Positions 15,807-55,749 of a stretch of 64,000 nucleotides of DNA are shown here, piece by piece (the stretch's first letter is position 1; every line of letters starts with the position of its first letter). This DNA is from a virus. Taxonomy: Duplodnaviria > Caudoviricetes. The notes under the pieces are model-generated. The model saw only the letters and a list, made by a program, of their open reading frames with translations, was not told where the DNA came from and searched no databases. A program made the position numbers and the translations under genes. The DNA lies in IMG/VR virus record IMGVR_UViG_3300044647_001578, positions 8,016 through 72,015 of that record; one strand, given 5' to 3'.

Positions 15807-15807
15807 G

Positions 15808-15879: not shown

Positions 15880-15880
15880 G

Positions 15881-23544: not shown

Positions 23545-23545
23545 T

Positions 23546-29602: not shown

Positions 29603-30607
29603 TTATTTTTGATGGGTCCAAGATTGATATTCAATATTGGAAACTGCGTTTTTAATACAGGCTTTAATTTCCTCTTCGGTCAAATCGCCAGCATCTTTTG
29701 CATCATGTGGATATATCTTACCATATTCATACGAAGCCCACAAGAGGTCTTTATTCTTTAATCTAGAGGCAATGCTATTGGCAAGCTCACGACCAGCGTG
29801 GTCAGCATCAGTCATTAAAGTAACTTTATTAAAATATCTATTTATTAATGCAATATTTTCTGTGGATATATGCCCGCCAAGTGTTGCAATAACATTGGGG
29901 AATCCCGCCTGATGAACACGGATTGCATCAAAGCTAGACTCTACAATAATAACATTGTCACCTATTTTTTTAGCACGGTGAATGTTAAACATAGTCTTGC
30001 TTCTGGGGAGGTTGGTACTGTTTTTAAATTTCTTTTCTGAAATAGATCTGCCTACGATGCCTACTGCAAGTCCGTCTGGGCTATGTACTGGAACTGTTAC
30101 CATATCCTGCTTTGGAGAATAGCCTAAAGAGAAATGGGCAATTGAAGACATATCGATTCCTCTAGACTTAAAGTAGTCTTGTGCTTCTTTGCTTGCAACT
30201 AAATCATTATATAGATTCTTTAGTATCTCTTCTGGAAACTCTACGAAGTCTGGCTTGTCTTCTAGAATATCGTTTAGAAGATCATCAAAGTTTTCTAATG
30301 TCTCCGCTTCTTTTGAATAGACATATCTCATGGCCTCAAAGTCATTCTTATGCAAAACTCTTTTAACTAGTTCTATTAATGATCCAGTTTCACCACACGA
30401 TGGATTAAAGCATAGCCATGCCCCAGTTGTTTTACTAATACTACAACTTGCGCTGTGTCGGTTGGAATGAAATGGGCAGTAAAAAGAAACCTCTATGTCT
30501 GTTTCACCAGCTACCTGTAAGCCAAGGCTCTTTACAATTGCCTTTATATGTTGCTTAGAGTATTGCGTGGTATCAGCTTTCCTTGCGTAATTGCTTCGTG
30601 CCGCCAT
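29603..30607 (-). CDS. dnaG: DNA primase
   Basis: CPFH...C..C Zn finger, IVES.FD TOPRIM, DADHAG. Confidence 0.92.
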   Translation of the reverse strand: MAARSNYARKADTTQYSKQHIKAIVKSLGLQVAGETDIEVSFYCPFHSNRHSASCSISKTTGAWLCFNPSCGETGSLIELVKRVLHKNDFEAMRYVYSKEAETLENFDDLLNDILEDKPDFVEFPEEILKNLYNDLVASKEAQDYFKSRGIDMSSIAHFSLGYSPKQDMVTVPVHSPDGLAVGIVGRSISEKKFKNSTNLPRSKTMFNIHRAKKIGDNVIIVESSFDAIRVHQAGFPNVIATLGGHISTENIALINRYFNKVTLMTDADHAGRELANSIASRLKNKDLLWASYEYGKIYPHDAKDAGDLTEEEIKACIKNAVSNIEYQSWTHQK

Positions 30608-30834
30608 GCCTTCTTCTTTCCTACGTAAGTGCCATAGAGTGTCATTAAGAACATCCATGTTGTGCCATCAAATTCTACCGAAAAGTTGGTGTCTATGTCA
30701 AGTACCCTAAGATACCCTTTGTCTCTCATCTGGTGCGTAAGCATGCTTTCATATTGATGCTTAATGCGAACCATATCAGAGTCATCTAAAAATTCAACTC
30801 TAACTTGGAATCTTTTTATCGGTTTGTGATTCAT
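30544..30834 (-). CDS. hypothetical protein
   Basis: ORF between helicase and primase. Confidence 0.65.
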   Translation of the reverse strand: MNHKPIKRFQVRVEFLDDSDMVRIKHQYESMLTHQMRDKGYLRVLDIDTNFSVEFDGTTWMFLMTLYGTYVGKKKAWRHEAITQGKLIPRNTLSNI

Positions 30835-32062
30835 TATTTTGGAAAGGATTCTCATAAATTTCTTTGACGATACCCCTGTTGATATCCCAATCTAAGTATA
30901 AACCAAATTCATGTCCATGTCGATTTTTACGTGAGACAATCTCAATCATATTAGTGCCTGGATATCTATGAACAGCCATAGCCATATCAGCATCATACTC
31001 AATAGCCTTTGACCAAGCCACCTGAGACATCATTGGAGGGTTGTCCTGATCCGAAACATCATCCGCAGTCGCTGCTGTGATATCAATAATAGGAATATTG
31101 TTTGAGACTGCAAGCATCTTAAACTCACGAGAAACATTTCTGTTTCTTTCAACTTCAGAGTTACTTCTTTTATTATCATTAAACAGCTGATGGTAATCAA
31201 GGATAACTATATCTGGTTTGTGCTGATCTATCTTGCCCTGAATAGTTGCTGGTGTTACTTCGGTATTGCCCTCATTTGAAATAAGGATAAAACTATTCTT
31301 GTCAGCAAATTTCTTTGAAGACCATGAACGGAAGTCATCAATATTAATGTCTCCCTTAGAAAAATCAGACGCTTTAAATAAACCAGACCCTAGCATTGTA
31401 TAAATACGATCACGCATATTCTCTGGTGACATCTCAAGAGAAACAATCATTGGCTTAAATCCTTGTTCCCAGGCCTTACACGCAAGGTAAGAAGTAAACC
31501 ACGTCTTACCACGCCCTGGCCAGCCGATAGCGACTATAAGGTGTCCTGGAGCCATACCTGTTGGGTATGCCAAGTCTATGGCCTCAAAACCTGTTTTGAT
31601 GCCTGGAGAACCACCCATTTCAGCAGAGCGCACTCTCAATAGCTCCATATGTCTAATTGCTGCTTCGGCATCTGTAATGTCTAAGTCTCGAACATTATTT
31701 GTAAATCTACTAAGGCCAGCTAATTGAGACTGCATATTTTCAAGAACTCTTGAGGCTGCATCTTCTTTTAAGGATGAGCCAGCACGAAGAATAATAGTCT
31801 TAAGCTTGTTTGAAATAAATTCATTTTTAAGTGTATCTAAATAGTATCCTGTCTGGCCTTTAACATCTACTGGCTCAAAGTCTTTGAATTTTTCCTGAAG
31901 GATTCCTGCCTCTGGTACTGCTTTAAACTTATAGTAATATGACTTAAGGCCATCCCAAATATCTTTATGTGATGTAAACAGATCGTCTACGTTATCCGCA
32001 AGGAGTGTACTAATGTCTTTATTCTTGCATACCGCTGAGATTAACTCTGCTTCTGTATTCAC
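30800..32062 (-). CDS. dnaB: DnaB-like replicative helicase
   Basis: GWPGRGKT, SLEMS, ILDYHQL, IEYDAD, KNRHG. Confidence 0.95.
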   Translation of the reverse strand: MNTEAELISAVCKNKDISTLLADNVDDLFTSHKDIWDGLKSYYYKFKAVPEAGILQEKFKDFEPVDVKGQTGYYLDTLKNEFISNKLKTIILRAGSSLKEDAASRVLENMQSQLAGLSRFTNNVRDLDITDAEAAIRHMELLRVRSAEMGGSPGIKTGFEAIDLAYPTGMAPGHLIVAIGWPGRGKTWFTSYLACKAWEQGFKPMIVSLEMSPENMRDRIYTMLGSGLFKASDFSKGDINIDDFRSWSSKKFADKNSFILISNEGNTEVTPATIQGKIDQHKPDIVILDYHQLFNDNKRSNSEVERNRNVSREFKMLAVSNNIPIIDITAATADDVSDQDNPPMMSQVAWSKAIEYDADMAMAVHRYPGTNMIEIVSRKNRHGHEFGLYLDWDINRGIVKEIYENPFQNNESQTDKKIPS

Positions 32063-42599: not shown

Positions 42600-43285
42600 T
42601 AAACTTCTTCCAGTGCTATAGATACATCCCAGAATTCTTGCGCCTCTGGCAGAACCGTAACGGCAGATGCCGTTGATGAGGCAGGTGTTCCAGATATAGT
42701 TCCTGCAACAGTAAATGATGTTGGAGTTGCTGCGGTGATAGTAAATACTCCGTTATATGCTGCAAATGTTGCTCCAGATACGCTAATCTTATTTCCAACT
42801 GCAAAACTATTTCTACCAGTATATGTTGTTACTCCAGCAGCATACGATATAGCGGTTATGTTTGAATTTTTAAATACTCCACCCGTTTTTAAATTTCTTC
42901 TTGTAACAGTAAAACTACAAGATGTGAATGACATCATCATTGTTTTTTCTCTTGAGGCGGTTCCGTTTGGAGAAACTTTTACATTAAATGCACCTTGACC
43001 AGCAACTGACTCATAGAACTCTTTAATGTTCATAGCCCCCCAGGCTCCATCTACAGTCATAGAAGAATATGTTGGTAAGCCTATCCAACTAACTGAAAGA
43101 ATGTCTTTATCAGCAATAAATATCTTTCTTAATGTTCCATTTGACATTCTCTGGGTTTTTTCAATTCTCTGTATATCCAATGTAGCGCTTGCTCTATTGT
43201 GCTCGCTTAATGCCTGCCAGACTACAGGGGTAACCGATGTGTTTTCAAATTTTATAAGGGATCCAAGCGGAAGGGTTAGCGCCAT
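42599..43285 (-). CDS. distal-tail-like protein with inserted beta domain
   Basis: Directly follows tape measure; RMSNGTLRK; inserted SFAVGNKISVSG...YNGVFTITA. Confidence 0.6.
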   Translation of the reverse strand: MALTLPLGSLIKFENTSVTPVVWQALSEHNRASATLDIQRIEKTQRMSNGTLRKIFIADKDILSVSWIGLPTYSSMTVDGAWGAMNIKEFYESVAGQGAFNVKVSPNGTASREKTMMMSFTSCSFTVTRRNLKTGGVFKNSNITAISYAAGVTTYTGRNSFAVGNKISVSGATFAAYNGVFTITAATPTSFTVAGTISGTPASSTASAVTVLPEAQEFWDVSIALEEV

Positions 43286-46200
43286 TATTTAACTCCTACT
43301 GTCATTGATGTGCCAGACATTTTAGAATTTCGGGAATCAAGAGTCTTGATTGCTGTGATAGTCTTCTGTGTTACTATATTTGACAATTGATTTATATCCC
43401 CATCGAATCCATTAATGTTATTTGTAATATTATATGTTGCTCCACCCATTGTAGCATTATTAGCGTTTGGATTAAAGGGGTTCATGTTAGCAGGAACAAC
43501 TGCTTCATTCTTATGAAGCATAGCAAGCATATCTACAGGAACACTATTTATTCCAGTTTCAAATTTAGGAATATTAAATTTACCTCCCTTTAAGTATCCT
43601 CCAGTTGCGCCCCTAACCATATCATCATCCATAAGATCTGAAATCTGAGCTATTTTTTCCATAAATTCTTTGTTAGAAATAGCGCCATTGGCATACTGAC
43701 CTATGATTGAGTCTCTCATTGCTTTTAAGTCATTCTCATTTGGATAAATTTTTCCACTTTGGTACTTTCCAAAACGTGTCCACATCAAAAGTGCATCTAA
43801 GGCTTTTTGAGTAGTGCTAATTCCAGGACCAATTTCTCCTATTGATGTTCTGTACGTATTAAGAATAGAGGTAAACGGATTGCTTCCTGAGCTTCTGGCC
43901 AACATGTCTATGTCACTAGAATTATGACCACCATCAAACCTTACTCCAAGCTTAGCTGCCAGTTCCATTATTGTTTCTTGATTTAAAGATTGATGCTCTC
44001 CGCCTACGGCGTATGAGTACGGTTGATCTATTCCAATTTGTTTTTTTGCTTTATCAATTGCTAATATTTGCAAAGCTCTTTGAGCGCTTTGACCTGCATC
44101 TCCCTCATAAGGATTTCTTGCTGGGGCATAGAAATCTTGATCTCCGTACATTCTTACATGATCTGGGTCAGATTTTTTAGCAGCGTCAAATTGTTCTATC
44201 GGCCTTAAGTTTTTATTTTCATTAACTTCTTTTAATATTTCATCAAGCTCTCTTTGAGAGTATTTTTCTTTTGACAAATAAAATATTTCTTTTGTTGAAG
44301 GGTTTTCTGTAATTACTGGAAGAGGCTCTCCGTCTTTGTGTAGCCCAAGCTCTTTTAATTTTGAAATGTAAGCAGATTCTTCTAATGGAAAAACTGAGCT
44401 AAGCTGTCCTTCTTTTTTGCTGTAATGGAATGGCTTTCCGAATCCTTGCAAGAAATAGCTGTCTGCCGAATGCAGCTGCTCTGGCTTTCCATTGTATTTC
44501 ATTAAATTAGAAAGTGTACTTACAATAAATGGCTTATCTGGTTTCCATGCACCCTGCATATGAGACTGAACTGCATCATAAATTCCAAAGTGTCTTGATG
44601 TTCTAGCTATGGAATGTGAGGCAGCGTCATCGGTTCCAGCAACGGAACCCTTTGGCCCTACAAATCTATCAAATATTTTAAATCCTGCAGCTGTTTCAAA
44701 AAGATCTCCTTGTCCGTCTGTTCTTGGAAACTCATCATTAAACACTCTTATCATTGGAATATCGTCTGGCGTCGTAGGAATATAGTGTGGTTCCATTCCT
44801 CGTGCTCTGTAGGCTGCAATCTCTGCTCTAGTTAAAGGTTCTTCTCCACGATTTCCAAAGAATCCACCTCGTAGGCCGCCATTGTATTCAGTTCTTGCAT
44901 CTGCTGCTATTTTTGCTAATCTAGCTTTTTCTGCATACTCTTCAGCCATTCTAGAAAGTATTGGTGCCATGGCTTTTGTTTTAGATTTAATAGCAATGGA
45001 GTCTTTTGCATTTCCCTTCATTGCAGAAATTAATTGAATAAGCCCTTCTGAGCTTGAAGAGTTTGTTATAGCGTATGGGTCAACATTTTTTAAATTCACA
45101 TTACCTGCTGCTAGCATATTCATTAAAAATTCTTTTACGTCTCTATCGCCCCATTGATATCCTGAATTTATTTTGTCCAGCAGGTCTTGAGCTTTTTTGT
45201 TTGAAGGATCTTTTTTCAAAACATAGGACAGTATTCCCTCTGGGGTTGTAGGTATAACAGCAGAAACCTGATGATTTGTTAACAATGAACTTAAGTTTTC
45301 ATCTATTCCTTGGAATACAACAGCATCATTTCCAAAAGGTCCTCCTGAATGAAGTGGTACGCTCATTCCTTCATGTAATACATATGGAGGGTAAACGTTA
45401 TTTGGTTTAAACTGCTCTGCAGTAACTTTTACTTTTGGCTTTTGTATTGTTGGAGCTAGCTTGCTTTCAACAAATGGTCTTGCTCCGCCAATTACTGCAG
45501 CAGTTGCTGCGTTTGTTGCAAGCTTTGATCCTGCTGCTCCAAGGAATGGGAATGAGCCCTTTGGCAATAAAGCGCCAAGCCCTGGTATTCCTTTTGAAAT
45601 TCCCAACTGCTCAATAAATGCTCTTCCGAATGCAGTTGATACAGTACCAGTTAATCCTGCAGTTAATAAATTTAGTCCGCCAGTTATCCATTCACCTTTC
45701 TTAAAATCTTTACCTGTACTGTTCATCTTTGAAGCATTTGGACCAAAGGTCAATGTTAATATCTTACTGGTTATGTCGTCGTAAATTGCACCAGTGCCAC
45801 CTCCATTTTGAAATAGGCCTTTCCAGTTTGAGGCTGTTGTGTACTTTTCCCATTGAGAAGGACCTTTTTTAGTCCATTCTCCATTTTTATTTTTATAGTA
45901 ATCAGGATTTTTCTCATACAGCTTATCCATTGCTTTATCGGTTGCTGCTTGCTTTTGTGGAGTCATTGCGCTCATTGTGACTTCATGAGAACCATCAGCT
46001 CTATGTGGGTGTACTGCTCCACCCTTATGGAATTTTCCAGGAATCTTTAAGTCTAATAATGACTTTACATTTCTTTCAAGTACACTACGAAGTACCTTGA
46101 GTTGGCCCTCATCAGTTATTCCGCTCTTAGTTAAGATATCATCTATAAATTTTTCTGGACCCTGCTTTGCTATTGACTTTCTTACAGAAGCAAATCCCTT

Positions 46201-49200
46201 AGTAAATTGAGAAGCTTGTTTTCCAACTAAAGTGCTGCCAGCCTTTAATGCTGTTTCAGCTGGGTTGGTTAAACTATCTATCATTCCCCAGTCAAATGCT
46301 CCAAGAGTTTTTTTGCCCTTAAGCAGTAGGTTTCCTGGATGCATGTCTCCGTGGCCTAGTATAGATGAAACTGCTCTCATCTTTCCAAAGCTCTTCATTG
46401 AAGCATTGGCTTTAAGCCAATCCATGTCAAGCGCTCCATGTGGCAACATTGCACCAGCATCTTCTAGTGTTTTCATTCCCTTTGATGCAAAGTCTTTACT
46501 TAATATGACAGATAAATTTTTCCAACTGCCCAAGATGTTGTCAGTACTTGGCATTTTAAATCTTTTAGCTATTGTAGACCCAGTTACTTCAAATGCACCT
46601 TCCATTACATCCTGCATAATCTTCATGTAATGTACAGATCCATCGGCTGCCTGCATTATAGACGGCCTTGACTTTCCTTTTGTAGACTTTCCTATATTCA
46701 TCAGGTCATCAAAATTACCAGCCTTTAATTTTTGTCCAACTTTAATTGCTTGTAATGCTTTAGGAATTGATTTTAGTACAAGACCAACGCCCTTGGCTAT
46801 CGGTCCGCCTGCAAACGTTGATCCTATGCTTGTGTAGTCGTTCCATTTTCCTTCGCCTGCGTATATATTAGTCGCAGACTGCTGAAGGTACTTGCCAAAA
46901 AGTTCATATAATATTGGGCCGCCAGGATTCGTGTGTTTCATAACTGGTGTCATTGTATTAGAGAATGAATGCACAAGGTTAGACCAATCAGATCTCTTGC
47001 TTGGATCTGAAACTTCTCCTGGTTCTAAGAACTTAAGCCAATTAGTGCCTCCAGAATTTCCAGCACTTGAAGTATTCCCAAGATTCATACCTTGCTCTTC
47101 ACGGTATTGATCTACTGTCTTATACTTACTCTTAGTCTTTGGCAGATTTCTTCCGTGACGATGACCCACTTCGCCACCTGTGTGGAATCCAATAGCCTTT
47201 TTAACTTTCTTAAATAGCTTGCCCCAGTCAATAACAGACTCCATAGATCCGCCAGAAACTAATGTACCATTTGGACCAATGCTTCCGCCGCCTTCTATTT
47301 TGCCTTTACTTAAAAAGGTTTCATGTTTTTCTGGAACAAACTCTGGATAAATTGTTTTATATTTATCTGGTAAGAATAGCTCTGCTCTTCTGTTTCTGGC
47401 TCTGTTCTCAGCAGTTGTATTTGGAACAAGAGGTCTGTACTCCCCGTATCCCACTGGCGTAAATGCTGTACCAGGAACAAACTTTGACATATATTCTGCA
47501 ATAGCATTTGCTCTATTTTGTGAAAGGATCTTGTTGTCTTTTCCTTTACCTACAGAGTCTGTGTGTCCTTGAACAACTATTGATGCCAGCTTATGTTTAA
47601 TAAGATCTTTAGCGATTGCCTGAAGTTCTAGTCTTTGTTCTTTATTTAATGTGTAAGAGTTTGTAGCAAAATTAGCTGTAATAGGCGGAACTTCAATTTT
47701 AATTATTTGCTTATTAGCATCTTGCCATGCTTCTATAGGGCCCATTAGCTTTCCGCCCTGCATGTTTACATTTATATTTGATCCGCCAGTTCCAAATGAG
47801 CTATTATGCTTAGATTGAGGAGTTGGATTTATTGGACCGCCCGCTGCATACTTGCCAGCATTTAATGCATCAAATGTTTCTACTCCGTATTTAGAAACCG
47901 AGTCCGCTTTAATTACATATTCGCCATTTGAAAGATAAGCTGGAATAGAATCTGATGTTGCAGTTCCTGCTCCCCTAATATGTCCACCATCTGCTCTGTT
48001 ATACGGGTTACCAGTTCTTTCTATGCTTCCATTATCTCTAACTTTAAAGGTAGAAATCTTTCCGTCTTTGTCTGTTACAGAGAAAAATTCACCAGGATTT
48101 ACCCCTCTTTCTTTTGCAAGTGCCTCAAGTCTCTGGCTTATTCCCATCGGGCCCCAGTCTTTTCTAGCATTACCATAGCTCTCTAAAGAAGCTCCTGGTA
48201 TAGTTGTTGTACCTGTTCCAGCTTTCCCAAGATTGTATGGGTCTGACCTAGTGCCGCTTCCAGAGTCTGGACCAATATTTAATCTTTTGCCGTCAATATT
48301 TATAATCACATTTCCGTTAACATCAATTGTACTTAATGCACCAAGCTTGCCTTCAAGGCTAGCAACCATTGCAGCGCCTAAGTCTAGATCTTTTAATCCA
48401 TTAAGTTTAACTCCAGCCTTTTCTGCTGCGTCAGCAACTGCTGCAAGCATCTTCTTTGACTGTTCGCCCGTCCTCCAAGCTTGTCTTTCTGCTTCTGGCT
48501 TCTTTAGCAATTCTATTTGCCAGTTAAGCATCGCAGTATTTACTTCTGAAATTGCACTTTCAGTATCGGTAATTTTGCCACTTAGATCCCCAAGCTTTTC
48601 TCCTGCTAATTGAGCATTGTCTGAGATTCCTTGCTGCTTGCTCTGTATGGCTTCAATTAGTTTTTGAAGTGGAACATTCTTTAGAATATTTGAATCTTCA
48701 ATTGATTTTTTCTGTGCGTTATATTGAAGCTCACTCTGGTATCCTTGTATATCAAGGCTTGCTTGTTGAGCACCAGCAATGTTTCCAGTTGCAAGTGCGG
48801 CATCATATTCTGCCTGCTTCTTTGCAATCTCTCTTCCTATATCGCCTTCTTGCTTTGCTGCGTCTAGCGCCTTAAGTCTTGCATCTGCAAGCTTATTGTT
48901 TGCATCTATTTGTTTTTGAAGTGAAGCAATCTTATCTCTATCTGATATTTGATCTGCTACAGATTGTCCTCTTGCTGCCTTTTGATATTTTGTCTGAAGC
49001 TGCAACATTCTGTCTAGATCAGCATATTGCTTTTTCAATACGCCTTCTCTGTTAGCAGATTCAACTTTTTTACCTAAAGATATCTGAAGGTTATAAAGAT
49101 CGTTTGTCTGCTCTGCGTTAAGGGCCCTTAAGTCTCCAGTGTATCCCTTAACTTGAATTCTTGTTTTTTGCCATAAAGATAAAGCAGTTTCTTGCTCGTT

Positions 49201-52200
49201 AACAATTTGTCTAATTGATGGGTCAATTTTTGCCATCTCATCAACGACCTCTTTGGTTAAGTAAACTTGATTTTCAACTTGGCTATTAATTTCGTCAATA
49301 GCAATTTTTTCTTGATCAAGCATTAATTGCTTTTCTTGACCACTTGAAAAGTATGTTCCATCCTTAGCTGCTTTTTTACGTGCTTCCTTTAAAGCTTTTG
49401 CTTGTCTAGACTCGACATCCGTAGACAAAGCCATCATTGCAGTATTTAGCTGATTTGCTTGTTCTGTTGCATCACGGTTAGTTGCCATTGCGGTAGTCAA
49501 ACTATCAATTGCAGATGCTGCAGCAGACGCTGTATCCTTTATGTCATTAAATCCTTGTGAACGAACTGTGTAGGCTGCGGCATTTGCTGATTGGTCTGAT
49601 AATGCGTACATAGTGTATATCTTTTTAGCCGCATCTTCTGCTGACATGCCCATAGCGATCAATTGTTCTTTAAGTCTTATGGCAAGCTCTCTCTGTTTTT
49701 CTGGGTCTTCGTTGCCCGTTTGATTAATTAAAGCTACTTGATCAGAATAATTAGTTTTAACTTCTTTTTTTAACTTCTTGTATTCTTCAATAGTTATATC
49801 TAGTGGGGTTCCAGATCCTTGCATGCTTTCGTATAAAAGGGTATTTCTTTCTTTTAATGCCTTTGCATTATTGATTGCTTCTTTTATTTTGTCATTAAAG
49901 TTTGTAAACTTAAGGCCTGCTTTTTCTGCAGCTTCTGCAGTCATTCCATAACCTAATGCGTTTAGTCTAAGGGCCTCTTTGTGAGCCTGCCACCTATCGT
50001 AACCATATTTGGCTATTGCAGCACCTGCTCCAACAGCAAGATTAAATCTAGTAAATATGCTTAATGATATTCCAAGTGCTTTGCTGAAAAGATTTGAGCT
50101 TCCAGTTAGCTTGCTTAGCATTGTTCCATATTTAGTTAGCTGCGGAGCACCCGTAATTTTGTTAGCTCCAACTGCACCTATTGGAGTTCTTGCTTGTATA
50201 AATTTATTACCCATAATGCTTGTGCCTTTTCCTGCACCTGCATTCATCATGCTTCCCATAGCCAAGAATGGAAGGATTGATCCAACTTGTTTAATTACAT
50301 CTCCTTGGGTTCCGCCAACTTTATCGCCAGCATAATTTGCACCTTGCTGTATTCCAAAAAATAATAATAGCTGCTTTAGCATTGGGACTATTCCACCAAG
50401 CCTAAAGCCATTTGGAATAGATCCGCCAGCTTTATATCCATTTGGAATTATTCCACCAGCATTTCTTGGAACAAATAGTTCTGGCCCCTTCTCTCCAACA
50501 ATGTATGGCTGGCCTGCATTAACTGGTCCGCCCTTTTCTCTTCCCTCTAGCTTAAATATTAATTGTTTTAATGCATCTGTAATTGAAGTATCTTTTTTAG
50601 ATTCCCAATTTGCAAACTTCTTTCTAAGTATTTCTCTATCTATTTGAGAAAGAACTTTTCGTCCAAGAGGATCGGACAAAGTTGAAGATGCAGCAGACCT
50701 TATTACTGTATCCATAATATCTGGCTCTAATGCTTTTATTAGCTGGCCTTTTGCATTTTTTGTATAGCCGTACGGCATTTCTTTTGCAAGTTCGCCTGCT
50801 AGCTTGTCGTAAAGAATTCTTTGAGTTCTCTTTGTTAGCCCTGTTGATGCAAAAAGCTTTTCAGCCATTCCAATTTCTAAAGAAGTAACTCCCCAACCAC
50901 CAGTTGAGTCTTTGCCAAATCCTGCTCCAATTCTGTGAAGCGCTTTGCCTTTTGTGATTGCTCCAATTAGTCCGCCTAATATAAATCCATTTTGTGGTGT
51001 TTTAAAAGCATTGTCGGAAAGGCTTACTGCATGTCCAGACTGCCTACGCTTTAGCTCATCTGCTGCAAGCATTTTAGCAATTGCTGCGGGAGTCATTGTT
51101 TTTTCTGGAGACATTGTTACTGATGAATGAACTCCGTGCAAGTCCTGATAGGTTTTTCTTCTTGCATCAGATAGTCTTTCAATCATTGCATTGTAAATAA
51201 CTTTTTCTTCTGCGGTTAAATCAGGGAATCTTGCAACAGTTTGCTTTAGTTTAGGCAAAGCTTCATTAATTTCTTTAAGCATTCGATCATTGTATTGATC
51301 TGCTGTCATCCCTTTTGGAATATCTGAAGTTGCTTCAGCAAAGAATTTTTTTGTGCTGCTTCCCTTTACTCCTAGCAAGTTAACCATTGCTTGGTGTTTA
51401 AAAGAAGGCATGATTGCTGAATAATCTCTAAGGCCAGATGCTGTAGAAAAAACTCCAGCTGGGCCGACGTCTCCCAAAACATTTCCAGAAAGGTTTCCTC
51501 TTCCTAAATCTTTATCTCCACGCAAGGCAGAAGCAACTAGCTGTCTGAAGTACTGGTCGTTTGTAAATTTAGAGTCTGTTGATGCAAATCTTGGATCATA
51601 CTCAGACTCTAGTGCAAGAAGTTTTCTTTTTCCAGCAGGGTCTGTTGGGTCTTTAATTACAACAATTTTTTGTTTTGGTGCATGAAGCCCATGAACTTCA
51701 CGAGCAATTTGTGTTGCTCTCATTTCAGCTAAAGCTGCTTTTTCATCTAATACTGGCTTTACGAATACCTTGCTTCCATCTTTTGAATAAATACCACCAA
51801 TGCCTGCAACTGGAAAGCTTCTTCCTGTTGTAGGAGAAAGTATTTCTCCATATTCAGTAACTTGCTTTTTTGAAAATCTAGAATCTTTGACTGCTTGATC
51901 TGCTTTTACCATTGCAGTTTTTGCTGCTCTTTGGGCTTCTACTTGTTTAATGGATCTTGGCATTCCAAGGAATACTGTTCCTCCTGGGAACAATCTTTGT
52001 GCCATTGGAACCTGGCCGCCATCATTTAATCCTATGTTTTCGCCAATTTCTCCACCAGCGTTTCTTCTTGCAATAATTTTAAGTGCGTGACTTACTCCAC
52101 TAGATGTAGTTAGGAGTGTGGCTAAATTAGTGCCTTTAGCCCAAGAGGGTAGCCTAGAACCTATTGTTCTATTTTCACTTACCCAGGTTAGTCTGCCATC

Positions 52201-55200
52201 TTTTCTTTTAACTATCTGGCCTTTTTGAATTGAGTTATTAGGCTTTCCTGTTATTAGTCCACGAGCTATGGCTTCATCTTTAGTTAAAACCTCTTTAGCT
52301 CTTTCAGTAAATACTTGAGATATAGCAGAAAATAAATTTCTTCTTCCGCCAGCTTTTGATGGGTCAATCCTAATTCCACGCAAAGCAGGCTTAAATATTT
52401 CTTTAGCAAGTCTTTCAAAACCAAACGGGTCGAGCTTGCCGCCGATCATCCTGCTTGCATTTTCTGGAAGTTCTAATTTACGAATCAATTCTTTAAGCGC
52501 TGCTGAGTTTCTTCTTTCTGCTTGAACCGCATCCCCACCTAGTGTGACTGCTGCTTCATTCATTAAGCTGTTCGGATTCATTCCAGAATCTAAGGTTGCT
52601 CTTATTAAGCTTGCTATGTAACTTCCAGTTAAACCTTTTCCATTAGAATTTACTCCAAGATTTAATTCTCTTGGAAGTAGCAATGCCATTCCGCTTAAGT
52701 CTTCTGTAATATGTGTTCTTTGTAACGCTAGCTTTTTAGGATTTCCTAAACCGCCTCCACCGTTTCTTCCAAGACCAGATGTATTTCCTGGTCCGCCGTT
52801 TAGCTCGTACATTAAAGGCATATTTCTTTGTGCAATGTGCGCTGGTATTACTGCTTCTCCAGGTGTTAATACAACTGGGACCTGACCACCTTCTTGTGCA
52901 TAATAAGATTTGCCTCCAAGAATATTTGTTATTAACGGTAGATGCTTTTCAGTAGCAGCTTTATTGATTACAAATGATCCAGGCTCAGCTGTTGTATGGT
53001 ATGTATCTGTGTTGCCAGTTCCTGGAACAAAACCACCTTTTGCAAACTTTGGCTTTGTTGTTTCTATGTTGTATCCAGCACCAGAAGTTCTTACCCCGCC
53101 AAGAGCTCTTGCGATTCTATCAACCATTGCTTTTGTAGGTCCTTTATGGAACATCTCTTTCATATTAGACTTTCCTGTAGCTGGATCTACTACTGGCTGA
53201 GAGGTTAGTGGTACTGTTCCTAGGTTTGCTGTTCTGCCCATTCCCGCTGCAGTTAGTCTTGTTGTTTCTGCAAGCATTGCTTCTACTGTTGCATTTAATG
53301 AAATAATTCTTGCTCTAGCTTGTTCTACTGTTATTTTACTTTGCTGAACTTGCTGAACAATTGCTGCAGTTTCTTTTGCTGCAAGGTCTGTTATCTGGCT
53401 AAACTCTGGCAACAATGCTTGGTAAGAATCAGATAAGCTTGATGTAACAGTTCCTGTTGCCATCACTTCCGCCTTTAGTATCTTAAGCTCTGCTTCAGAT
53501 TGCATAGCAATAGCGGCTGTCATTGCATGCCATTTTGCAGCTTCTGCTGCAACAATTCCTGTGGAGGTTCCTCCTATTGATGTTAGTCCAGGGATTTTTG
53601 GTAGATCGCTGTCCATATAAGCCTGTGGATTTCTGCCAACTCTTATATTTACTGGCTTTGATCCTGGTACTGTTCCAAATATTGTTCCTGCTTGTGGATT
53701 TCCAGATGGAATTAAGTGAGACATGTCTCTAGAATATGGTGCACCAACTAGTGGATTATTTTTATCTACCACTCTTCCAGCGGGTCCTGCTGCCATAATT
53801 ACTCCGCCTGCTACTGTTGATACTGCTGGCTGAACAGATACTTTGGCTGCATTTGCTTTTGCTTCTAGATTTATAAATGATTCTGCAAGTGTATTTACTG
53901 CATTAGATAAAACAATAGTTGCTTCTGTATCCGAGTAGAACGATGTTGCAAGACCTTTAGCAGCAGCATCTGCGGCTATGATCTCTGGTGTTAATAATTT
54001 AAATCCGTGCCCACCCTTTGCTAATTGTCTTAGATGGAATATTCCCTTGATTACATATCCAATAAAGTTGCCCATAACACCCGTCAACATAATAAGAGGT
54101 CCAGCAATTGCTGTGAAACCTCCTAATACATTTAATAATGTTTTAACTGGCTCTGGAAGCTTCTGGAAAAACTTTATAATTGCGTCGACAACTTTTAATA
54201 CCTTTGTGCTTATTCTTAAGAATTGCTCTCCTGCGCCAGCTAGGTCTGCTTGAACTGATGCCCAAGCTCTCTTGAACTGCCCAGAGGCTGATTCTGTCAT
54301 CATCTTTAATTCTCGATCTGAAATTGCTGCTAGTTCTGTTACGCTAGCCTTCATTAAGTCCATTACTTGAAGTGTTTGTGATCCAGACTTTCCTAGGTTT
54401 TCAAATAACGCCGACATTCTTGCAAACTGGAACTTACCAAATAGCTGTTCAATTGCTCTTGATTTATCTAGCGGATTAAGATTGTCTAGTGCGGCCTGCA
54501 ATGATAATATTGTTGCAGTTAGATCACCAGCATTATCATTTACAATACCCTTTAGATCAATTCCAAATCCCATAAACTGCTCTGTTGCAACTTTAGTTGG
54601 GTTAATAAGTGATGCCATCGCTGACTTAATTGCGTTTGCACCTTCTGATGCATTTACTCCGCCTTCTTTCATTGCAGTAAGGTAGAGCGCTAAATCTTTT
54701 ACATCTCCGCCAAGAGATTTAATTACTGGACCAGCTTTAGGAATTGCTTCAGTCAAATCTGCAAGGCTTGTTGATGTCTGGTTTTCAACTGCGTTGAGGA
54801 AGTCAATTGATTGTGCTAGTTCATCGGTGCTCTGCTTAAAGGCATTTTGAATTGCAAGAGTTGCTTTCATCGCATCTTGTCTATCAACTTCACCAAGCAC
54901 GGCAAGTCTTGTTGTTTGCTGCGTAGCGGCAATTAAATCATTACCCTGTTGTCCTGTTGCTGCTAAGTCTGCAGCGAGTGCGATTGTTTCTTTATAGGCA
55001 ACACCATAAGAGCCAGCAATTTCTCTAGCTGTTGCAGTAACATCTTTTCTTACCTGTGCCAGATCTGCAGATGAAGTTGCTGCAAGCCCTCCATAAACTT
55101 TTGTTAATCTTACTAATTCTGCGTCTGCTTCTCTGAATGCTTTTTGTGCTGCCGCTCCGAACATAACCAAAGGAACAGTTAGTCCTACTGTAAGCTGGCG

Positions 55201-55749
55201 ACCAGCCCATTGGGTATTTTTACCCCAGTTAATAAGACCTGTTGATCCGTCAAGCATTACCTTGTTCATTATTGCGGCTTCTTGTCGAGCAATAGCCATC
55301 TTGTTCTTTATTTCATCAAGACCTTTTGCAACCATGACATTGTATTGCATTTGTCCTTGTGCATTTTTGCCTACAGGTTGAACTATAGCCTGTTGCAGCA
55401 TTACCTGCTGCTTAGCTAAGTCTCTAATTAAATTGCTTGTCTTCTTTGTATGGCCGCTCCAAGCATTATAATAATCGTTGAGCTTGAGGCGACCTCTATC
55501 TAAGTTCTTTCCGAACTTGTCTACGTCTGATGATAGGGATACAAAGTGTTGCGAGAACTGTCCTGTTGATGTTAGCGTTGTTGCAAACGACTTGTTCATC
55601 ACAGCAATTTGATTTGCTAGTTTTGCGTTTGTTCCCGCTGTTGTTTCTTGCAGTTTTATGAGTTGGGCAGTAACCGCAGCTAGCTGAGCTCTTAAGCTCG
55701 TAAAGTCTGCGTGGGCGGTAATATTGGTCGTTATTATATTATCTGCCAT
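43285..55749 (-). CDS. giant tape measure protein with kinase-like and OmpA-like cargo domains
   Basis: Follows tail chaperones; N-terminal tape-measure core; lambda gpH-type FAxGG motifs; DLxxxN...DxG and DMHPGN...FDWG kinase motifs; GHTD...RNRR OmpA motif. Confidence 0.92.
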   Translation of the reverse strand: MADNIITTNITAHADFTSLRAQLAAVTAQLIKLQETTAGTNAKLANQIAVMNKSFATTLTSTGQFSQHFVSLSSDVDKFGKNLDRGRLKLNDYYNAWSGHTKKTSNLIRDLAKQQVMLQQAIVQPVGKNAQGQMQYNVMVAKGLDEIKNKMAIARQEAAIMNKVMLDGSTGLINWGKNTQWAGRQLTVGLTVPLVMFGAAAQKAFREADAELVRLTKVYGGLAATSSADLAQVRKDVTATAREIAGSYGVAYKETIALAADLAATGQQGNDLIAATQQTTRLAVLGEVDRQDAMKATLAIQNAFKQSTDELAQSIDFLNAVENQTSTSLADLTEAIPKAGPVIKSLGGDVKDLALYLTAMKEGGVNASEGANAIKSAMASLINPTKVATEQFMGFGIDLKGIVNDNAGDLTATILSLQAALDNLNPLDKSRAIEQLFGKFQFARMSALFENLGKSGSQTLQVMDLMKASVTELAAISDRELKMMTESASGQFKRAWASVQADLAGAGEQFLRISTKVLKVVDAIIKFFQKLPEPVKTLLNVLGGFTAIAGPLIMLTGVMGNFIGYVIKGIFHLRQLAKGGHGFKLLTPEIIAADAAAKGLATSFYSDTEATIVLSNAVNTLAESFINLEAKANAAKVSVQPAVSTVAGGVIMAAGPAGRVVDKNNPLVGAPYSRDMSHLIPSGNPQAGTIFGTVPGSKPVNIRVGRNPQAYMDSDLPKIPGLTSIGGTSTGIVAAEAAKWHAMTAAIAMQSEAELKILKAEVMATGTVTSSLSDSYQALLPEFSQITDLAAKETAAIVQQVQQSKITVEQARARIISLNATVEAMLAETTRLTAAGMGRTANLGTVPLTSQPVVDPATGKSNMKEMFHKGPTKAMVDRIARALGGVRTSGAGYNIETTKPKFAKGGFVPGTGNTDTYHTTAEPGSFVINKAATEKHLPLITNILGGKSYYAQEGGQVPVVLTPGEAVIPAHIAQRNMPLMYELNGGPGNTSGLGRNGGGGLGNPKKLALQRTHITEDLSGMALLLPRELNLGVNSNGKGLTGSYIASLIRATLDSGMNPNSLMNEAAVTLGGDAVQAERRNSAALKELIRKLELPENASRMIGGKLDPFGFERLAKEIFKPALRGIRIDPSKAGGRRNLFSAISQVFTERAKEVLTKDEAIARGLITGKPNNSIQKGQIVKRKDGRLTWVSENRTIGSRLPSWAKGTNLATLLTTSSGVSHALKIIARRNAGGEIGENIGLNDGGQVPMAQRLFPGGTVFLGMPRSIKQVEAQRAAKTAMVKADQAVKDSRFSKKQVTEYGEILSPTTGRSFPVAGIGGIYSKDGSKVFVKPVLDEKAALAEMRATQIAREVHGLHAPKQKIVVIKDPTDPAGKRKLLALESEYDPRFASTDSKFTNDQYFRQLVASALRGDKDLGRGNLSGNVLGDVGPAGVFSTASGLRDYSAIMPSFKHQAMVNLLGVKGSSTKKFFAEATSDIPKGMTADQYNDRMLKEINEALPKLKQTVARFPDLTAEEKVIYNAMIERLSDARRKTYQDLHGVHSSVTMSPEKTMTPAAIAKMLAADELKRRQSGHAVSLSDNAFKTPQNGFILGGLIGAITKGKALHRIGAGFGKDSTGGWGVTSLEIGMAEKLFASTGLTKRTQRILYDKLAGELAKEMPYGYTKNAKGQLIKALEPDIMDTVIRSAASSTLSDPLGRKVLSQIDREILRKKFANWESKKDTSITDALKQLIFKLEGREKGGPVNAGQPYIVGEKGPELFVPRNAGGIIPNGYKAGGSIPNGFRLGGIVPMLKQLLLFFGIQQGANYAGDKVGGTQGDVIKQVGSILPFLAMGSMMNAGAGKGTSIMGNKFIQARTPIGAVGANKITGAPQLTKYGTMLSKLTGSSNLFSKALGISLSIFTRFNLAVGAGAAIAKYGYDRWQAHKEALRLNALGYGMTAEAAEKAGLKFTNFNDKIKEAINNAKALKERNTLLYESMQGSGTPLDITIEEYKKLKKEVKTNYSDQVALINQTGNEDPEKQRELAIRLKEQLIAMGMSAEDAAKKIYTMYALSDQSANAAAYTVRSQGFNDIKDTASAAASAIDSLTTAMATNRDATEQANQLNTAMMALSTDVESRQAKALKEARKKAAKDGTYFSSGQEKQLMLDQEKIAIDEINSQVENQVYLTKEVVDEMAKIDPSIRQIVNEQETALSLWQKTRIQVKGYTGDLRALNAEQTNDLYNLQISLGKKVESANREGVLKKQYADLDRMLQLQTKYQKAARGQSVADQISDRDKIASLQKQIDANNKLADARLKALDAAKQEGDIGREIAKKQAEYDAALATGNIAGAQQASLDIQGYQSELQYNAQKKSIEDSNILKNVPLQKLIEAIQSKQQGISDNAQLAGEKLGDLSGKITDTESAISEVNTAMLNWQIELLKKPEAERQAWRTGEQSKKMLAAVADAAEKAGVKLNGLKDLDLGAAMVASLEGKLGALSTIDVNGNVIINIDGKRLNIGPDSGSGTRSDPYNLGKAGTGTTTIPGASLESYGNARKDWGPMGISQRLEALAKERGVNPGEFFSVTDKDGKISTFKVRDNGSIERTGNPYNRADGGHIRGAGTATSDSIPAYLSNGEYVIKADSVSKYGVETFDALNAGKYAAGGPINPTPQSKHNSSFGTGGSNINVNMQGGKLMGPIEAWQDANKQIIKIEVPPITANFATNSYTLNKEQRLELQAIAKDLIKHKLASIVVQGHTDSVGKGKDNKILSQNRANAIAEYMSKFVPGTAFTPVGYGEYRPLVPNTTAENRARNRRAELFLPDKYKTIYPEFVPEKHETFLSKGKIEGGGSIGPNGTLVSGGSMESVIDWGKLFKKVKKAIGFHTGGEVGHRHGRNLPKTKSKYKTVDQYREEQGMNLGNTSSAGNSGGTNWLKFLEPGEVSDPSKRSDWSNLVHSFSNTMTPVMKHTNPGGPILYELFGKYLQQSATNIYAGEGKWNDYTSIGSTFAGGPIAKGVGLVLKSIPKALQAIKVGQKLKAGNFDDLMNIGKSTKGKSRPSIMQAADGSVHYMKIMQDVMEGAFEVTGSTIAKRFKMPSTDNILGSWKNLSVILSKDFASKGMKTLEDAGAMLPHGALDMDWLKANASMKSFGKMRAVSSILGHGDMHPGNLLLKGKKTLGAFDWGMIDSLTNPAETALKAGSTLVGKQASQFTKGFASVRKSIAKQGPEKFIDDILTKSGITDEGQLKVLRSVLERNVKSLLDLKIPGKFHKGGAVHPHRADGSHEVTMSAMTPQKQAATDKAMDKLYEKNPDYYKNKNGEWTKKGPSQWEKYTTASNWKGLFQNGGGTGAIYDDITSKILTLTFGPNASKMNSTGKDFKKGEWITGGLNLLTAGLTGTVSTAFGRAFIEQLGISKGIPGLGALLPKGSFPFLGAAGSKLATNAATAAVIGGARPFVESKLAPTIQKPKVKVTAEQFKPNNVYPPYVLHEGMSVPLHSGGPFGNDAVVFQGIDENLSSLLTNHQVSAVIPTTPEGILSYVLKKDPSNKKAQDLLDKINSGYQWGDRDVKEFLMNMLAAGNVNLKNVDPYAITNSSSSEGLIQLISAMKGNAKDSIAIKSKTKAMAPILSRMAEEYAEKARLAKIAADARTEYNGGLRGGFFGNRGEEPLTRAEIAAYRARGMEPHYIPTTPDDIPMIRVFNDEFPRTDGQGDLFETAAGFKIFDRFVGPKGSVAGTDDAASHSIARTSRHFGIYDAVQSHMQGAWKPDKPFIVSTLSNLMKYNGKPEQLHSADSYFLQGFGKPFHYSKKEGQLSSVFPLEESAYISKLKELGLHKDGEPLPVITENPSTKEIFYLSKEKYSQRELDEILKEVNENKNLRPIEQFDAAKKSDPDHVRMYGDQDFYAPARNPYEGDAGQSAQRALQILAIDKAKKQIGIDQPYSYAVGGEHQSLNQETIMELAAKLGVRFDGGHNSSDIDMLARSSGSNPFTSILNTYRTSIGEIGPGISTTQKALDALLMWTRFGKYQSGKIYPNENDLKAMRDSIIGQYANGAISNKEFMEKIAQISDLMDDDMVRGATGGYLKGGKFNIPKFETGINSVPVDMLAMLHKNEAVVPANMNPFNPNANNATMGGATYNITNNINGFDGDINQLSNIVTQKTITAIKTLDSRNSKMSGTSMTVGVK

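Follow-up and report, generated by a model that had tools for sequence, protein, structure and literature searches.

The giant tape measure protein of an uncultivated Caudoviricetes virus very probably contains a kinase fold at residues 3003 to 3244, carried on a swappable cassette. We analyzed a 64,000-nucleotide stretch of viral DNA (the window, to which all positions refer), and its sequence argues that this domain is a genuine, selectively maintained, atypical phosphotransferase of the protein-kinase-like (PKL) type. Our overall reading, held with even confidence, is that the cassette would be carried in the virion and would act early on a host target.

Table 1. Features of the tape measure protein (TMP) and its kinase-like cassette
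Feature	Residues	Position	Strand	Basis
Tape measure ORF P0001	4154 aa	43285..55749	(-)	Single open frame, PhageMin_Tail, tail-module context
OmpA-like (peptidoglycan-binding type) domain	2694-2787	47389..47670	(-)	Pfam OmpA, 67.2 bits vs cut-off 27.2
Upstream junction FHTGGEVGHRHGRNLP	2855-2870	47140..47187	(-)	Motif match
Conserved ~110-aa leader (junction) domain	2896-3008	46726..47064	(-)	Homologues P0005-P0008
Gly-rich, mildly hydrophobic leader end SIGSTFAGGPIAKGVGLVLKSIPKAL	2974-2999	46753..46830	(-)	Kyte-Doolittle
PKL domain, FHKGG junction at end	3003-3244	46018..46743	(-)	Alignment A2, hhalign, Pfam sub-threshold, dN/dS, structure
Lys codon (HYMK; putative ATP-anchoring beta3 Lys)	3043	46621..46623	(-)	Invariant 10/10
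Glu codon (FEVTG; putative helix-C Glu)	3054	46588..46590	(-)	Invariant 10/10
Catalytic loop H3133-G-D3135-M-H3137-P-G-N3140	3133-3140	46330..46353	(-)	H, D, H, N invariant 10/10
Asp codon (FDWG; DFG-like, putative metal-binding), 13 residues past Asn3140	3153	46291..46293	(-)	Invariant 10/10
Downstream junction FHKGG	3240-3244	46018..46032	(-)	Motif; relatives diverge just after
Variable cargo region	3250-4045	43615..46002	(-)	Comparison of relatives
Conserved TMP C-terminal end	4046-4154	43288..43614	(-)	Alignment of relatives

Host gene and catalytic residues

A sequence-only reading of this DNA had placed a HipA/PI4K-like protein kinase inside the tape measure, at 46035 to 47170. That stretch is coding on the minus strand only, the plus-strand frame being stop-rich, and the location was borne out: all of the motifs lie inside one open frame, whose residues 239 to 438 match Pfam PhageMin_Tail (91.6 bits; cut-off 33.2). 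The gene is flanked by head and tail-tube genes and by minor tail genes, in the order seen in Streptomyces phage BillNye. Five related viral contigs carry the same giant ORF (3895 to 4210 residues), and the protein has roughly double the length of the tape measures of relatives. The OmpA-like domain, which is also found in the relative P0002, lies upstream of the kinase cassette.

The strings quoted in that reading were all recovered in the claimed order and at the claimed residues, namely, SIGSTFAGGPIAKGVGLVLKSIPKAL (2974 to 2999), KSRPSIMQAADGSVHYMK (3026 to 3043), FEVTG (3053 to 3057), LGHGDMHPGNLLL (3131 to 3143), and GAFDWG (3150 to 3155). FHTGG (2855 to 2859) and FHKGG are indeed 385 residues apart, and Asp3135 is the aspartate it had named. 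Read directly from the window, the spacings D-x4-N and N-x12-D are what we take to be canonical kinase spacings. We aligned 10 homologous kinase modules from two clades that share 22 to 26% identity with one another (alignment A2), and the catalytic set K, E, H, D, H, N, D (columns K41, E52, H131, D133, H135, N138, and D151; residues 3043, 3054, 3133, 3135, 3137, 3140, and 3153) is unchanged in all 10, across both clades.

Each of these motifs is short and the protein is 4154 residues long, so that they might have met by chance in a low-complexity structural protein. This explanation is refuted. Translated in six frames, the window contains the composite pattern H.D.H..N.{8,16}D[FWYL][GE] a single time, 0 of 20000 shuffled versions of the protein contain it, the domain is conserved across two clades, and profile-profile (hhalign) probabilities reach 95.9%, compared to at most 0.6% for a negative control, another 281-residue part of the same protein.

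Selection on the domain points the same way as its residues. Among six sequences, dN/dS ranged from 0.03 to 0.18 (14 informative pairs), and the 30 of 242 domain positions that varied included no motif residue. A complete, invariant catalytic set under purifying selection makes it probable that the domain is a catalytically active, ATP-dependent phosphotransferase. A dead kinase fold, acting as a spacer that adds tail length or as a module that binds a host component, would agree with the doubled length of the protein, with the low confidence of the structure models described below, and with the scaling of tail length with tape-measure length reported in the excerpt of PMC1796659. However, every catalytic residue is invariant at ~25% identity, while variation among close relatives falls at other positions. 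Pseudokinases usually lack at least one catalytic residue, and we regard a dead or purely structural module as highly improbable.

Fold and family placement

The two clades of modules are joined by hhalign at 97.6% probability (E 3.9e-12, 142 columns), and an HMM of the window clade matches the clade-B protein P0008 at E 6e-5, scaled to 1.8e9 sequences. At E<=1, APH profiles matched 10 of the 10 members, ABC1 five, and HipA_2 and PI3_PI4 four each, with HMM matches spanning mainly 30 to 45 residues about the catalytic loop. Three clade-B proteins exceed the Pfam APH cut-off (25.5 to 26.5 bits versus 23.2). The window protein falls below every Pfam family threshold in the kinase region: ABC1 gave 22.0 to 22.1 bits (cut-off 22.9), APH 20.4 to 21.4 (23.2), HipA_2 12.6 (27), and PI3_PI4_kinase 12.5 (27.1), and HipA_C gave no row. 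The window protein thus has a kinase-fold domain that is not demonstrably a member of HipA or PI4K; a kinase fold with a full catalytic set inside the tape measure survives from the sequence-only reading, but the family membership does not.

Against family alignments constructed for this analysis, A2 matched ABC1 at 95.9% (E 5.6e-9) and APH at 88.4%, and the window clade matched APH at 92.6% (96 columns); in the calibration, APH matched ABC1 at 95%. At least 56 of the best 60 matches listed in a PDB profile search were kinases or phosphotransferases whose alignment fell on the catalytic loop, headed by the ABC1 chain 7cy2 (E 0.005), and the loop aligned with those of ABC1, APH, PI3K, mTOR, and ePK chains. 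Two AF2 models had low confidence (mean pLDDT of 39.5 and 45.3; N-lobe about 25 to 30). When an AF2 model was compared with 48,161 chains by VIA-align, 19 of the 20 at Z>=5 were kinases or kinase-like (132 to 177 residues aligned), with Z values of 5.0 to 6.7, a range rated common for unmatched models; they included CtkA (6.4), PI3K/PI4K chains such as Vps34 (6.3) and PI4KII-alpha (6.3), HipA (5.3), and CotH. Foldseek returned no match at E<=0.001, its top row being CtkA (E 0.65). By structure or language model, then, the neighbors (HipA_2, CtkA, HipA, and PI3K/PI4K) are kinase-like, but the AF2 confidence behind the structural ones is low.

These neighbors bear on whether the domain could be a strict HipA-family toxin, which would be injected and would stop host translation, as HipA does, by phosphorylating an aminoacyl-tRNA synthetase. 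The N-lobe is matched by HipA_2 in those four members (best E 0.0016), hhalign pairs 52 columns of A2 with the HipA_2 alignment at E 8.6e-4, 23 of the 30 named ESM-Atlas clusters closest to the domain are HipA_2 sets (score 0.93), and CtkA, HipA, and HipT are matched in structure at Z 4.2 to 6.4, with CtkA also topping the nonsignificant Foldseek list. Yet the probability of the HipA_2 alignment is 23.6% for A2 and 1.2% for clade B, and E. coli HipA gives 0.3% against the A2 profile. In addition to the subthreshold Pfam scores, the loop reads HGDxHxxN rather than the NvDRTxxN...IDHG of our constructed HipA_2 consensus, and the domain is internal to a tape measure rather than encoded on its own beside a partner gene. 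We therefore consider a HipA toxin very unlikely.

Many APH and ABC1/UbiB-type enzymes are small-molecule, lipid, or envelope-precursor kinases, and the domain could be one of these instead of a protein kinase, modifying a substrate associated with the membrane or the cell wall where the phage enters, to aid DNA passage. The best profile matches are ABC1 and APH, the lipid kinases PI3K and PI4K are among the structure matches, the same protein has an OmpA-like wall-binding domain immediately upstream, and the cultured relative BillNye has an envelope-acting Peptidase_M23 domain in the C-proximal part of its tape measure (residues 1906 to 2002 of 2102). However, the matches are mostly limited to the common catalytic core, where other PKL families match too, ABC1 proteins themselves yield equally short APH matches, and a substrate-binding region is not recognizable. 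We judge this reading, including the aid to DNA passage, to be unlikely.

Cassette architecture and distribution

The cassette consists of a His-rich FHxGG junction, the leader, the kinase domain, and a second FHxGG junction, and it sits in the C-proximal cargo part of the tape measure. [FL]HxGGxVGH[RK]H occurs at both cassette ends in P0002, P0003, L002, L005, and L006. The proposal that the module is bounded by FHTGG and FHKGG held up, as the junctions coincide with mosaic breakpoints: P0002, P0003/L003, and L005 are colinear with the window protein to residue 3249 and unrelated beyond. The cargo region, which matched 0 Pfam families, is retained in L002 and L006 and swapped for unrelated sequence in P0002, L003, and L005. 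Despite differing upstream cargo, the C-terminal end is 75 to 91% identical in P0002, P0003, P0005, and L005; this end directly follows the kinase in P0004 and clade B.

The leader alone was matched in P0005 to P0008 (E 1e-27 to 4e-16), with two copies in P0007. P0005, P0006, and P0007 are giant tape measures in which nonkinase sequence follows it, and P0005 is near-identical through GGPIAKGV and divergent beyond. No Pfam family matched the leader. Its end had been described as a pre-toxin-like helix; a hydrophobic Gly-rich leader end does exist (Kyte-Doolittle 19-residue peak of 1.14 at 2974 to 2992, one of about 10 such segments in the protein), but without a Pfam pre-toxin match the likeness is one of analogy.

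The recurrent junctions, ending in GG, could be processing sites, which raises the idea that the kinase works in the producing cell instead of the next host, either late in infection or during tail assembly (e.g., by autophosphorylation or by regulating assembly), or that it is clipped off at those sites before the tail is complete. ATP is plentiful in the producing cell, and by established geometry folded domains may not fit the tail tube. Against this, the C-proximal region of a tape measure exits the tail first, and no gain is evident from housing such a function in this protein. Enzymes embedded in tape measures and studied so far also act at infection, judging by the TM4 hydrolase motif in the excerpt of PMC1796659. 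A producer-cell role is accordingly one to which we give little credence.

The module is rare, forming 7 clusters among 1.8 billion representatives, all from uncultivated phages. The window cassette had 0 matches among 50,697 phage records, with no cultivated phage carrying the module, and P0008 matched these records in the tape-measure N-terminal part only. Related phages with tape measures of 1689 to 2154 residues lack the cassette, and our literature search yielded no account of a tape measure that carries a kinase.

Proposed delivery and comparison with known systems

During infection, tape measure proteins exit at the tail tip and get as far as the inner membrane, which makes release of a virion-carried kinase the most likely mechanism. 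A pre-made kinase would be carried in the virion within the tape measure, be released together with it at infection, work at or across the cytoplasmic membrane, with access to ATP, and act on a host target prior to any phage gene expression, for takeover or counter-defence, much as the sequence-only reading had proposed. We advance this virion-delivered early function tentatively, at slightly less than even confidence; delivery into the host with an anti-defence role is plausible. A conserved and apparently active domain on such a cassette suggests that the phage would supply its host with a ready-made enzyme on infection. Outside the cytoplasm a kinase is without ATP, and a lipid or small-molecule kinase would need cytoplasmic access just as a protein kinase would.

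Further points count against delivery. The tail-tube lumen may not accommodate a folded 27-kDa domain in three copies, and the domains that cultured relatives have in the C-proximal region are wall-acting, not cytoplasmic.

The tape measure of mycobacteriophage TM4 carries a peptidoglycan-hydrolase motif, according to the excerpt of PMC1796659. As in TM4 and BillNye, the window protein has an in-frame, C-proximal accessory catalytic domain that is dispensable in relatives. The known embedded domains cleave the wall on the outer side of the membrane and do so without a cofactor, whereas the kinase-fold domain requires ATP and so would have to act on the cytoplasmic side.

With ABC1/UbiB (PF03109) and APH (PF01636) the domain shares the HGDxHxxN loop and a metal-binding Asp 13 residues on, and its hhalign probabilities to them equal those between the two families. 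It lies just below both Pfam cut-offs, the match extends over only the catalytic core and some of the C-lobe, and those families are free-standing cellular enzymes rather than parts of a virion protein. The N-lobe instead resembles HipA_2, having the pattern G-S-x-P...Y-x-K...E-x-x-G-S in common with HipA/HipA_2/CtkA and PI3K/PI4K, from which the domain differs in the sequence type of its loop and in not being a separate gene.

T7 kinase (gp0.7, T7K) disarms defence systems, as stated in the excerpt of PMC13645617. Its loop, FDMHSGNIM, is like HGDMHPGNLL of the window, but T7K is an early-expressed free protein and not a virion component; a profile comparison of the two reaches only 1.8%, over 12 columns, so kinship is not demonstrated. 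Virion-packaged, injected enzymes do exist, such as the T4 ADP-ribosyltransferase Alt, as do polymorphic-toxin and type VI secretion (T6SS) effector cassettes. Against Pfam, the window protein gave no match to known families of pre-toxins or effector leaders, but its layout is like that of such cassettes, with a conserved leader followed by variable cargo toward the C terminus and with sharp recombination boundaries. Like Alt, the kinase would arrive pre-made with the genome; unlike Alt and the toxin cassettes, its carrier is the tape measure itself.

The carrier protein and its phage

The region 46035-47170, read from the sequence by itself as a HipA/PI4K-like protein kinase, codes on the minus strand only, within a single 4154-aa ORF (43285..55749, minus strand); a plus-strand reading is ruled out by many stops. 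The ORF carries a PhageMin_Tail domain and lies between the tail tube/chaperone and the distal tail genes: by PHROG annotation, protease, capsid, adaptor and Ig-domain (tail tube-like) genes precede it and minor tail genes follow it. The same gene order is found in the Streptomyces phage BillNye, and the N-terminal 700 aa are 37 to 62% identical to tape measure proteins (TMPs) of related phage contigs. By domain content and gene position, the ORF is a phage TMP, and it is about twice as long as the TMPs of its relatives (2102 aa in BillNye; frames of 2154, 1689 and 1774 aa in related phage contigs binned in metagenome-assembled genomes [MAGs]). The kinase cassette is preceded, at a distance of ∼200 aa, by an OmpA-like domain, which is also present in the related protein P0002. 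In the corresponding C-proximal region, the BillNye TMP (L008, 11853-18158) has a Peptidase_M23 domain at aa 1906 to 2002 of 2102.

The window comes from a 72-kb viral metagenome record with an estimated completeness of 67%, and its GC content is 39%. The nearest cultivated phages are Streptomyces siphoviruses of ∼127 to 133 kb (Stanwilliamsviridae, e.g., BillNye), with capsid identities of 55 to 60% and a DnaE identity of 57%. A RecA search recovered related phage contigs (RecA 74 to 91% identical) in a Bacteroidia MAG (L010 and L011, at 91% and 83%) and in a cyanobacterial MAG (L012, at 74%), together with L015 to L017. These MAG-binned contigs, assigned to two phyla, are probably mis-binned phage genomes, and the kinase profile had no match in the three MAGs with related phage contigs; the TMPs of these contigs (1689 to 2154 aa) lack the kinase. 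One MAG-binned contig has 109,918 bases, about the size of a phage genome. Given that the nearest isolates grow on Streptomyces, yet the GC content is 39% and relatives fall in Bacteroidia and cyanobacterial bins, we assign the window phage to no host. The window also contains the phage's own genes for replication and recombination, all on the minus strand.

Features of the window and of its tape measure protein
Feature	Window position	Strand	TMP residue(s)	Remark
Subtilase (Peptidase_S8) ORF	5200-6327	-
tRNA genes, first of two clusters (five genes in all)	8908-9068	-		Leu-taa, Asn-gtt
893-aa ORF	9756-12437	-		Extensin-like Pro-rich region
tRNA genes, second cluster	15733-15954	-		Lys-ttt, Arg-tct, Met-cat
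2OG-Fe(II) oxygenase ORF	22720-23571	-
RecA	23724-24728	-
DnaE-type DNA polymerase III alpha	25353-28640	-		With PHP domain
DnaG-like primase	29603-30658	-
DnaB-like helicase	30800-32062	-
PhageMin_Tail			239-438	Pfam, 91.6 bits (cut-off 33.2)
Variable cargo	52060-52746	-	1002-1230	Replaced in L006
Second kinase-like motif series	∼51460-51850	-	∼1300-1430	By eye; GIGG..VFVK..GDKDLGRGN..GDVG
ADGGHIRGAGTATSDSIPAYLSNGEYVIKADSVSKYG..FDALN motif	47830-47994	-	2586-2640
OmpA-like domain	47389-47670	-	2694-2787	OmpA family, peptidoglycan-associating type; 67.2 bits (cut-off 27.2)
FHTGG		-	2855	String check
Gly-rich stretch		-	2974-2999	String check
KSRPSIMQAADGSVHYMK		-	3026-3043	String check
FEVTG		-	3053	String check
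LGHGDMHPGNLLL		-	3131-3143	String check
GAFDWG		-	3150	String check
FHKGG		-	3240	String check
Variable cargo	43615-46002	-	3250-4045	Replaced in P0002, L003, L005

Catalytic motifs and family relationships of the kinase-like domain

All of the strings quoted in the sequence-only reading were found, in the order claimed, on the minus strand inside the TMP ORF. Six-frame translation of the window gives a single instance of the composite catalytic pattern, and none of 20000 shuffled versions of the TMP contains it. In a 10-row alignment of kinase modules, drawn from the window clade and from a second clade typified by the related protein P0008 (clade B), the columns invariant in all ten modules include Y39, K41, E52, H131, D133, H135, N138, and D151, which correspond to TMP residues 3041, 3043, 3054, 3133, 3135, 3137, 3140, and 3153. 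Going by position, K3043 is the putative ATP-anchoring lysine of beta3 and E3054 the putative helix C glutamate, and H3133-G-D3135-M-H-P-G-N3140 is followed ∼13 residues on by D3153, the putative metal-binding Asp of a DFG-like motif. The spacings D-x4-N and N-x12-D, the canonical ones for kinases, can be read directly in the sequence, and the catalytic loop aligns with the loops of ABC1, APH, PI3K, mTOR, and ePK chains. Identity between the two clades is 22 to 26% in this alignment, and hhalign joins them at 97.6% (E 3.9e-12); the 142 columns aligned reach from the N-lobe as far as the DFG-like motif. Judged by profile, the two clades are homologous, and in sequence their invariant residues include every catalytic residue expected of a protein-kinase-like (PKL) enzyme.

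The module recurs at 90 to 96% identity in five further viral contigs, always within a frame of 3895 to 4210 aa. Among the six sequences, dN/dS was 0.03 to 0.18 in the 14 informative pairs of 15, the remaining pair being the identical contigs L003 and L004. Of the 242 domain positions, 30 vary, no motif residue among them. The low dN/dS and the invariance across deep clades argue for a working active site, against a spacer or a pseudokinase, and we infer that the domain is an active phosphotransferase.

The HipA/PI4K likeness first proposed did not extend to family membership in profile searches. For the window, Pfam HipA_2 (PF20613) reached 11.5 to 12.6 bits (cut-off 27) over N-lobe positions 5 to 57 only, PI3_PI4_kinase (PF00454) reached 11.6 to 12.5 bits (cut-off 27.1), and HipA_C (PF07804) returned no row at E<=10 for the cassette. 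ABC1 (PF03109; 20.8 to 22.1 bits, cut-off 22.9, profile positions 179 to 221 of 244) and APH (PF01636; 20.4 to 21.4 bits, cut-off 23.2, positions 165 to 197 only) also stayed below threshold. At E<=1, the alignment members matched APH in ten of ten cases, ABC1 in five, HipA_2 in four, and PI3_PI4 in four. Three clade-B proteins exceeded the APH cut-off (25.5 to 26.5 bits), over only ∼45 profile positions; because genuine ABC1 proteins and other kinases of bacterial genomes give short APH matches of the same sort, such a match points to the superfamily without singling out a family.

Profile-to-profile comparison was made with hhalign, using references built from Bacteroidota genomes (30 HipA_2, 26 APH, and 20 ABC1 proteins; four APH loci and one ABC1 locus with truncated flanks or poor overlap were dropped, and the short-match proteins L099 to L107 were left unused). 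The 10-row alignment matched ABC1 at 95.9% (E 5.6e-9, 60 columns) and APH at 88.4%, while the window clade matched APH at 92.6% (96 columns, into the C-lobe) and ABC1 at 95.1% (79 columns), a significant profile similarity to bona fide families. The HipA_2 reference of 30 proteins was matched at 23.6% (E 8.6e-4) over 52 N-lobe columns. As calibration, APH against ABC1 gave 95%, HipA_2 against APH 11 to 17%, and HipA_2 against ABC1 <=1%; a negative control (TMP aa 1280 to 1560) gave <=0.6% against the three families and the alignment. Compared as single sequences, Escherichia coli HipA gave 0.3% and T7 gp0.7 gave 1.8%, the latter over 12 columns at the catalytic loop, values that establish kinship to neither.

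A direct search of the PDB with the cassette sequence returned nothing significant, the best row being a spurious ribosomal protein L18 (E 0.011). In the PDB profile search, individual E-values were weak (best, the ABC1 protein 7cy2, E 0.005), and of the 60 matches listed, at least 56 were to kinases or phosphotransferases, with the catalytic loop as the aligned part; those that were not, judged by name, were 5lbh, 2eh3, 5yjz, and 9ugq. AlphaFold2 models were of low confidence, with a mean pLDDT of 39.5 for the 390-aa cassette as a single sequence and of 45.3 with the 10-row alignment, and Foldseek against the PDB gave 0 matches at E<=0.001 (top row, CtkA, E 0.65). A VIA-align scan of 48,161 chains with the low-confidence model found 20 chains with Z>=5, of which none reached Z>=8. 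Nineteen of the 20, at Z 5.0 to 6.7 (132 to 177 residues aligned, rmsd 4.0 to 10.6 Å), were kinases or kinase-like: actin-fragmin kinase, CotH, CtkA, Vps34, PI4KII-alpha, PI4KIII-beta, PI3Ks, SMG1, Tel1, HipA, and two LanM synthetases, whose matched domain we take to be kinase-like. Since Z values below 8 are common for unmatched models, a range that includes the Vps34, PI4KII-alpha, and PI4KIII-beta rows (Z 5.7 to 6.3), we took the make-up of this list, and not its scores, as support. In the ESM Atlas, the domain lies nearest to clusters without a name; of the 30 nearest clusters that have a name, 23 are HipA_2 sets (score 0.93), with one HipA-family cluster and one PI3_PI4 cluster.

We consider it very likely that the domain has a PKL fold. 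The catalytic core follows the ABC1/APH sequence type and the N-lobe the HipA_2/CtkA type, and with the HipA, PI3K/PI4K, APH, and ABC1 thresholds all unreached by the window protein, the domain can be assigned to no described family. HipA toxins are encoded as separate genes, paired with an adjacent HipB-type partner; the present domain forms part of a structural protein of 4154 aa. A second kinase-like motif series, noticed by eye nearer the N terminus of the TMP, had no Pfam match, no PDB match, and hhalign values of <=0.6% to APH, ABC1, HipA_2, and the 10-row alignment, which makes it unlikely to be a kinase.

Mosaic structure of the tape measure cargo

The cassette (aa 2855 to 3244) consists of a leader of ∼110 aa and the kinase-like domain (aa 3003 to 3244), with a junction of the form [FL]HxGGxVGH[RK]H at both ends, seen in the window as FHTGGEVGHRHGRNLP and a degenerate FHKGGAVHPHRADGSHE. 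The cassette is enclosed by the same junctions in the related proteins P0002 and P0003 and the viral contigs L002, L005, and L006. Other TMP modules, too, have hydrophobic-x-x-GG motifs between them, and a self-BLAST of the TMP at E<=1 found no internal repeats. Colinearity of P0002, P0003/L003, and L005 with the window TMP extends to aa 3249, five residues beyond FHKGG; past this point, they continue with 500 to 750 aa of unrelated sequence and then share the last 107 to 147 aa. The FHxGG bounds first proposed for the module thus coincide with a mosaic breakpoint. L002 and L006 retain the window's cargo, and L006 exchanges another segment instead. Neither variable cargo segment contains a recognizable Pfam family. 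No other module separates the kinase from the conserved C-terminal end in P0004 and in clade B.

The Gly-rich amphipathic stretch said to open the module is present, as the mildly hydrophobic end of the conserved leader (aa ∼2896 to 3008); its Kyte-Doolittle value is 1.14 over 19 residues, and it is one of ∼10 such segments in the TMP. The leader matches independently in P0005 to P0008, with two copies in P0007, and is followed by non-kinase sequence in P0005 to P0007. P0005 is nearly identical to the window as far as GGPIAKGV and divergent thereafter, and P0003 has a diverged leader ahead of a 96%-identical kinase. The description "pre-toxin-like" is an analogy, drawn from the leader-like behavior of a segment that different modules follow; Pfam at E<=10 on aa 2855 to 3244 returned kinase families only. 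Elsewhere, the ADGGHIRGAGTATSDSIPAYLSNGEYVIKADSVSKYG..FDALN motif recurs three times in P0007 and twice in P0008 and is also found in P0004 and P0006, perhaps as a further junction or an anchoring element. Taken together, the alignments show that the cargo region of the TMP contains, as a cassette that can be exchanged, a conserved PKL domain that is catalytically complete in sequence.

An exhaustive phmmer search of 1.84 billion cluster representatives with the 390-aa cassette found only seven proteins. The kinase part is present in P0002 (91%), P0003 (69% over the whole cassette, 96% in the core), and P0004 (49%), and P0008 carries a diverged copy. Profile searches added P0009 to P0013 and then P0014, all of the P0008 type. 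A near-length search for stand-alone relatives yielded a single protein, likely a clade-B TMP fragment, and the search for longer relatives spanned proteins of 462 to 2000 aa. Among 50,697 cultivated phage records, the cassette had neither a DNA nor a protein match, and P0008 matched TMP N termini only. In bacterial and archaeal representative genomes, 0 of 44 pattern matches were confirmed as the module. The module is rare and is seen in uncultivated phages only.

Possible role at infection

TMPs are expelled from the tail tip at infection, and some are known to carry wall-cutting motifs. The lambda TMP is located at the inner-membrane ManYZ complex, labeled by a TurboID fusion, and defense systems are described that target TMPs during injection (PMC13190303); the T7 phage kinase is presented as a broad counter-defense tool that disarms defenses (PMC13645617); and a catalytic motif inside the TMP of mycobacteriophage TM4 aids infection (PMC1796659). 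The literature searched, supplements aside, yielded no paper on a kinase inside a TMP, the T7K homologue list of PMC13645617 lying outside that scope. Given the expulsion of TMPs and the location of the lambda protein, a TMP-borne module could by analogy meet cytoplasmic ATP and host targets ahead of any phage transcription. In its proposed mode of action, the cassette resembles both an embedded TMP enzyme and an injected effector.

An ATP-dependent kinase-fold enzyme in a TMP would imply entry of part of the TMP into the cytoplasm in a functional state. The tail would in that case double as an injector of ready-made effector proteins, active before any expressed anti-defense gene, and a TMP-borne kinase would link the T7 kinase that disarms defenses (PMC13645617) with TMP-targeting defense (PMC13190303). 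The sharp cassette boundaries point to a modular cargo system, in which further injected activities might be sought and which might be adapted for engineered phage delivery of proteins. A TMP kinase would surprise a phage biologist and is directly testable, yet it is rare, and the case for it is purely computational.

A broader reading, which we put forward tentatively and regard as rather unlikely when all its parts are taken jointly, is that the giant TMPs of this group of phages serve as polymorphic scaffolds for effector delivery, with an injected kinase effector. Cassettes bounded by His-rich FHxGG junctions would be swapped from phage to phage; the leader (∼110 aa, ending in a Gly-rich hydrophobic stretch) would carry the next module across the cytoplasmic membrane; and the pre-made kinase would phosphorylate host targets within seconds of adsorption, before phage transcription, in counter-defense or takeover. 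The scaffold as a whole would be a phage analogue of type VI secretion system (T6SS) and polymorphic-toxin delivery.
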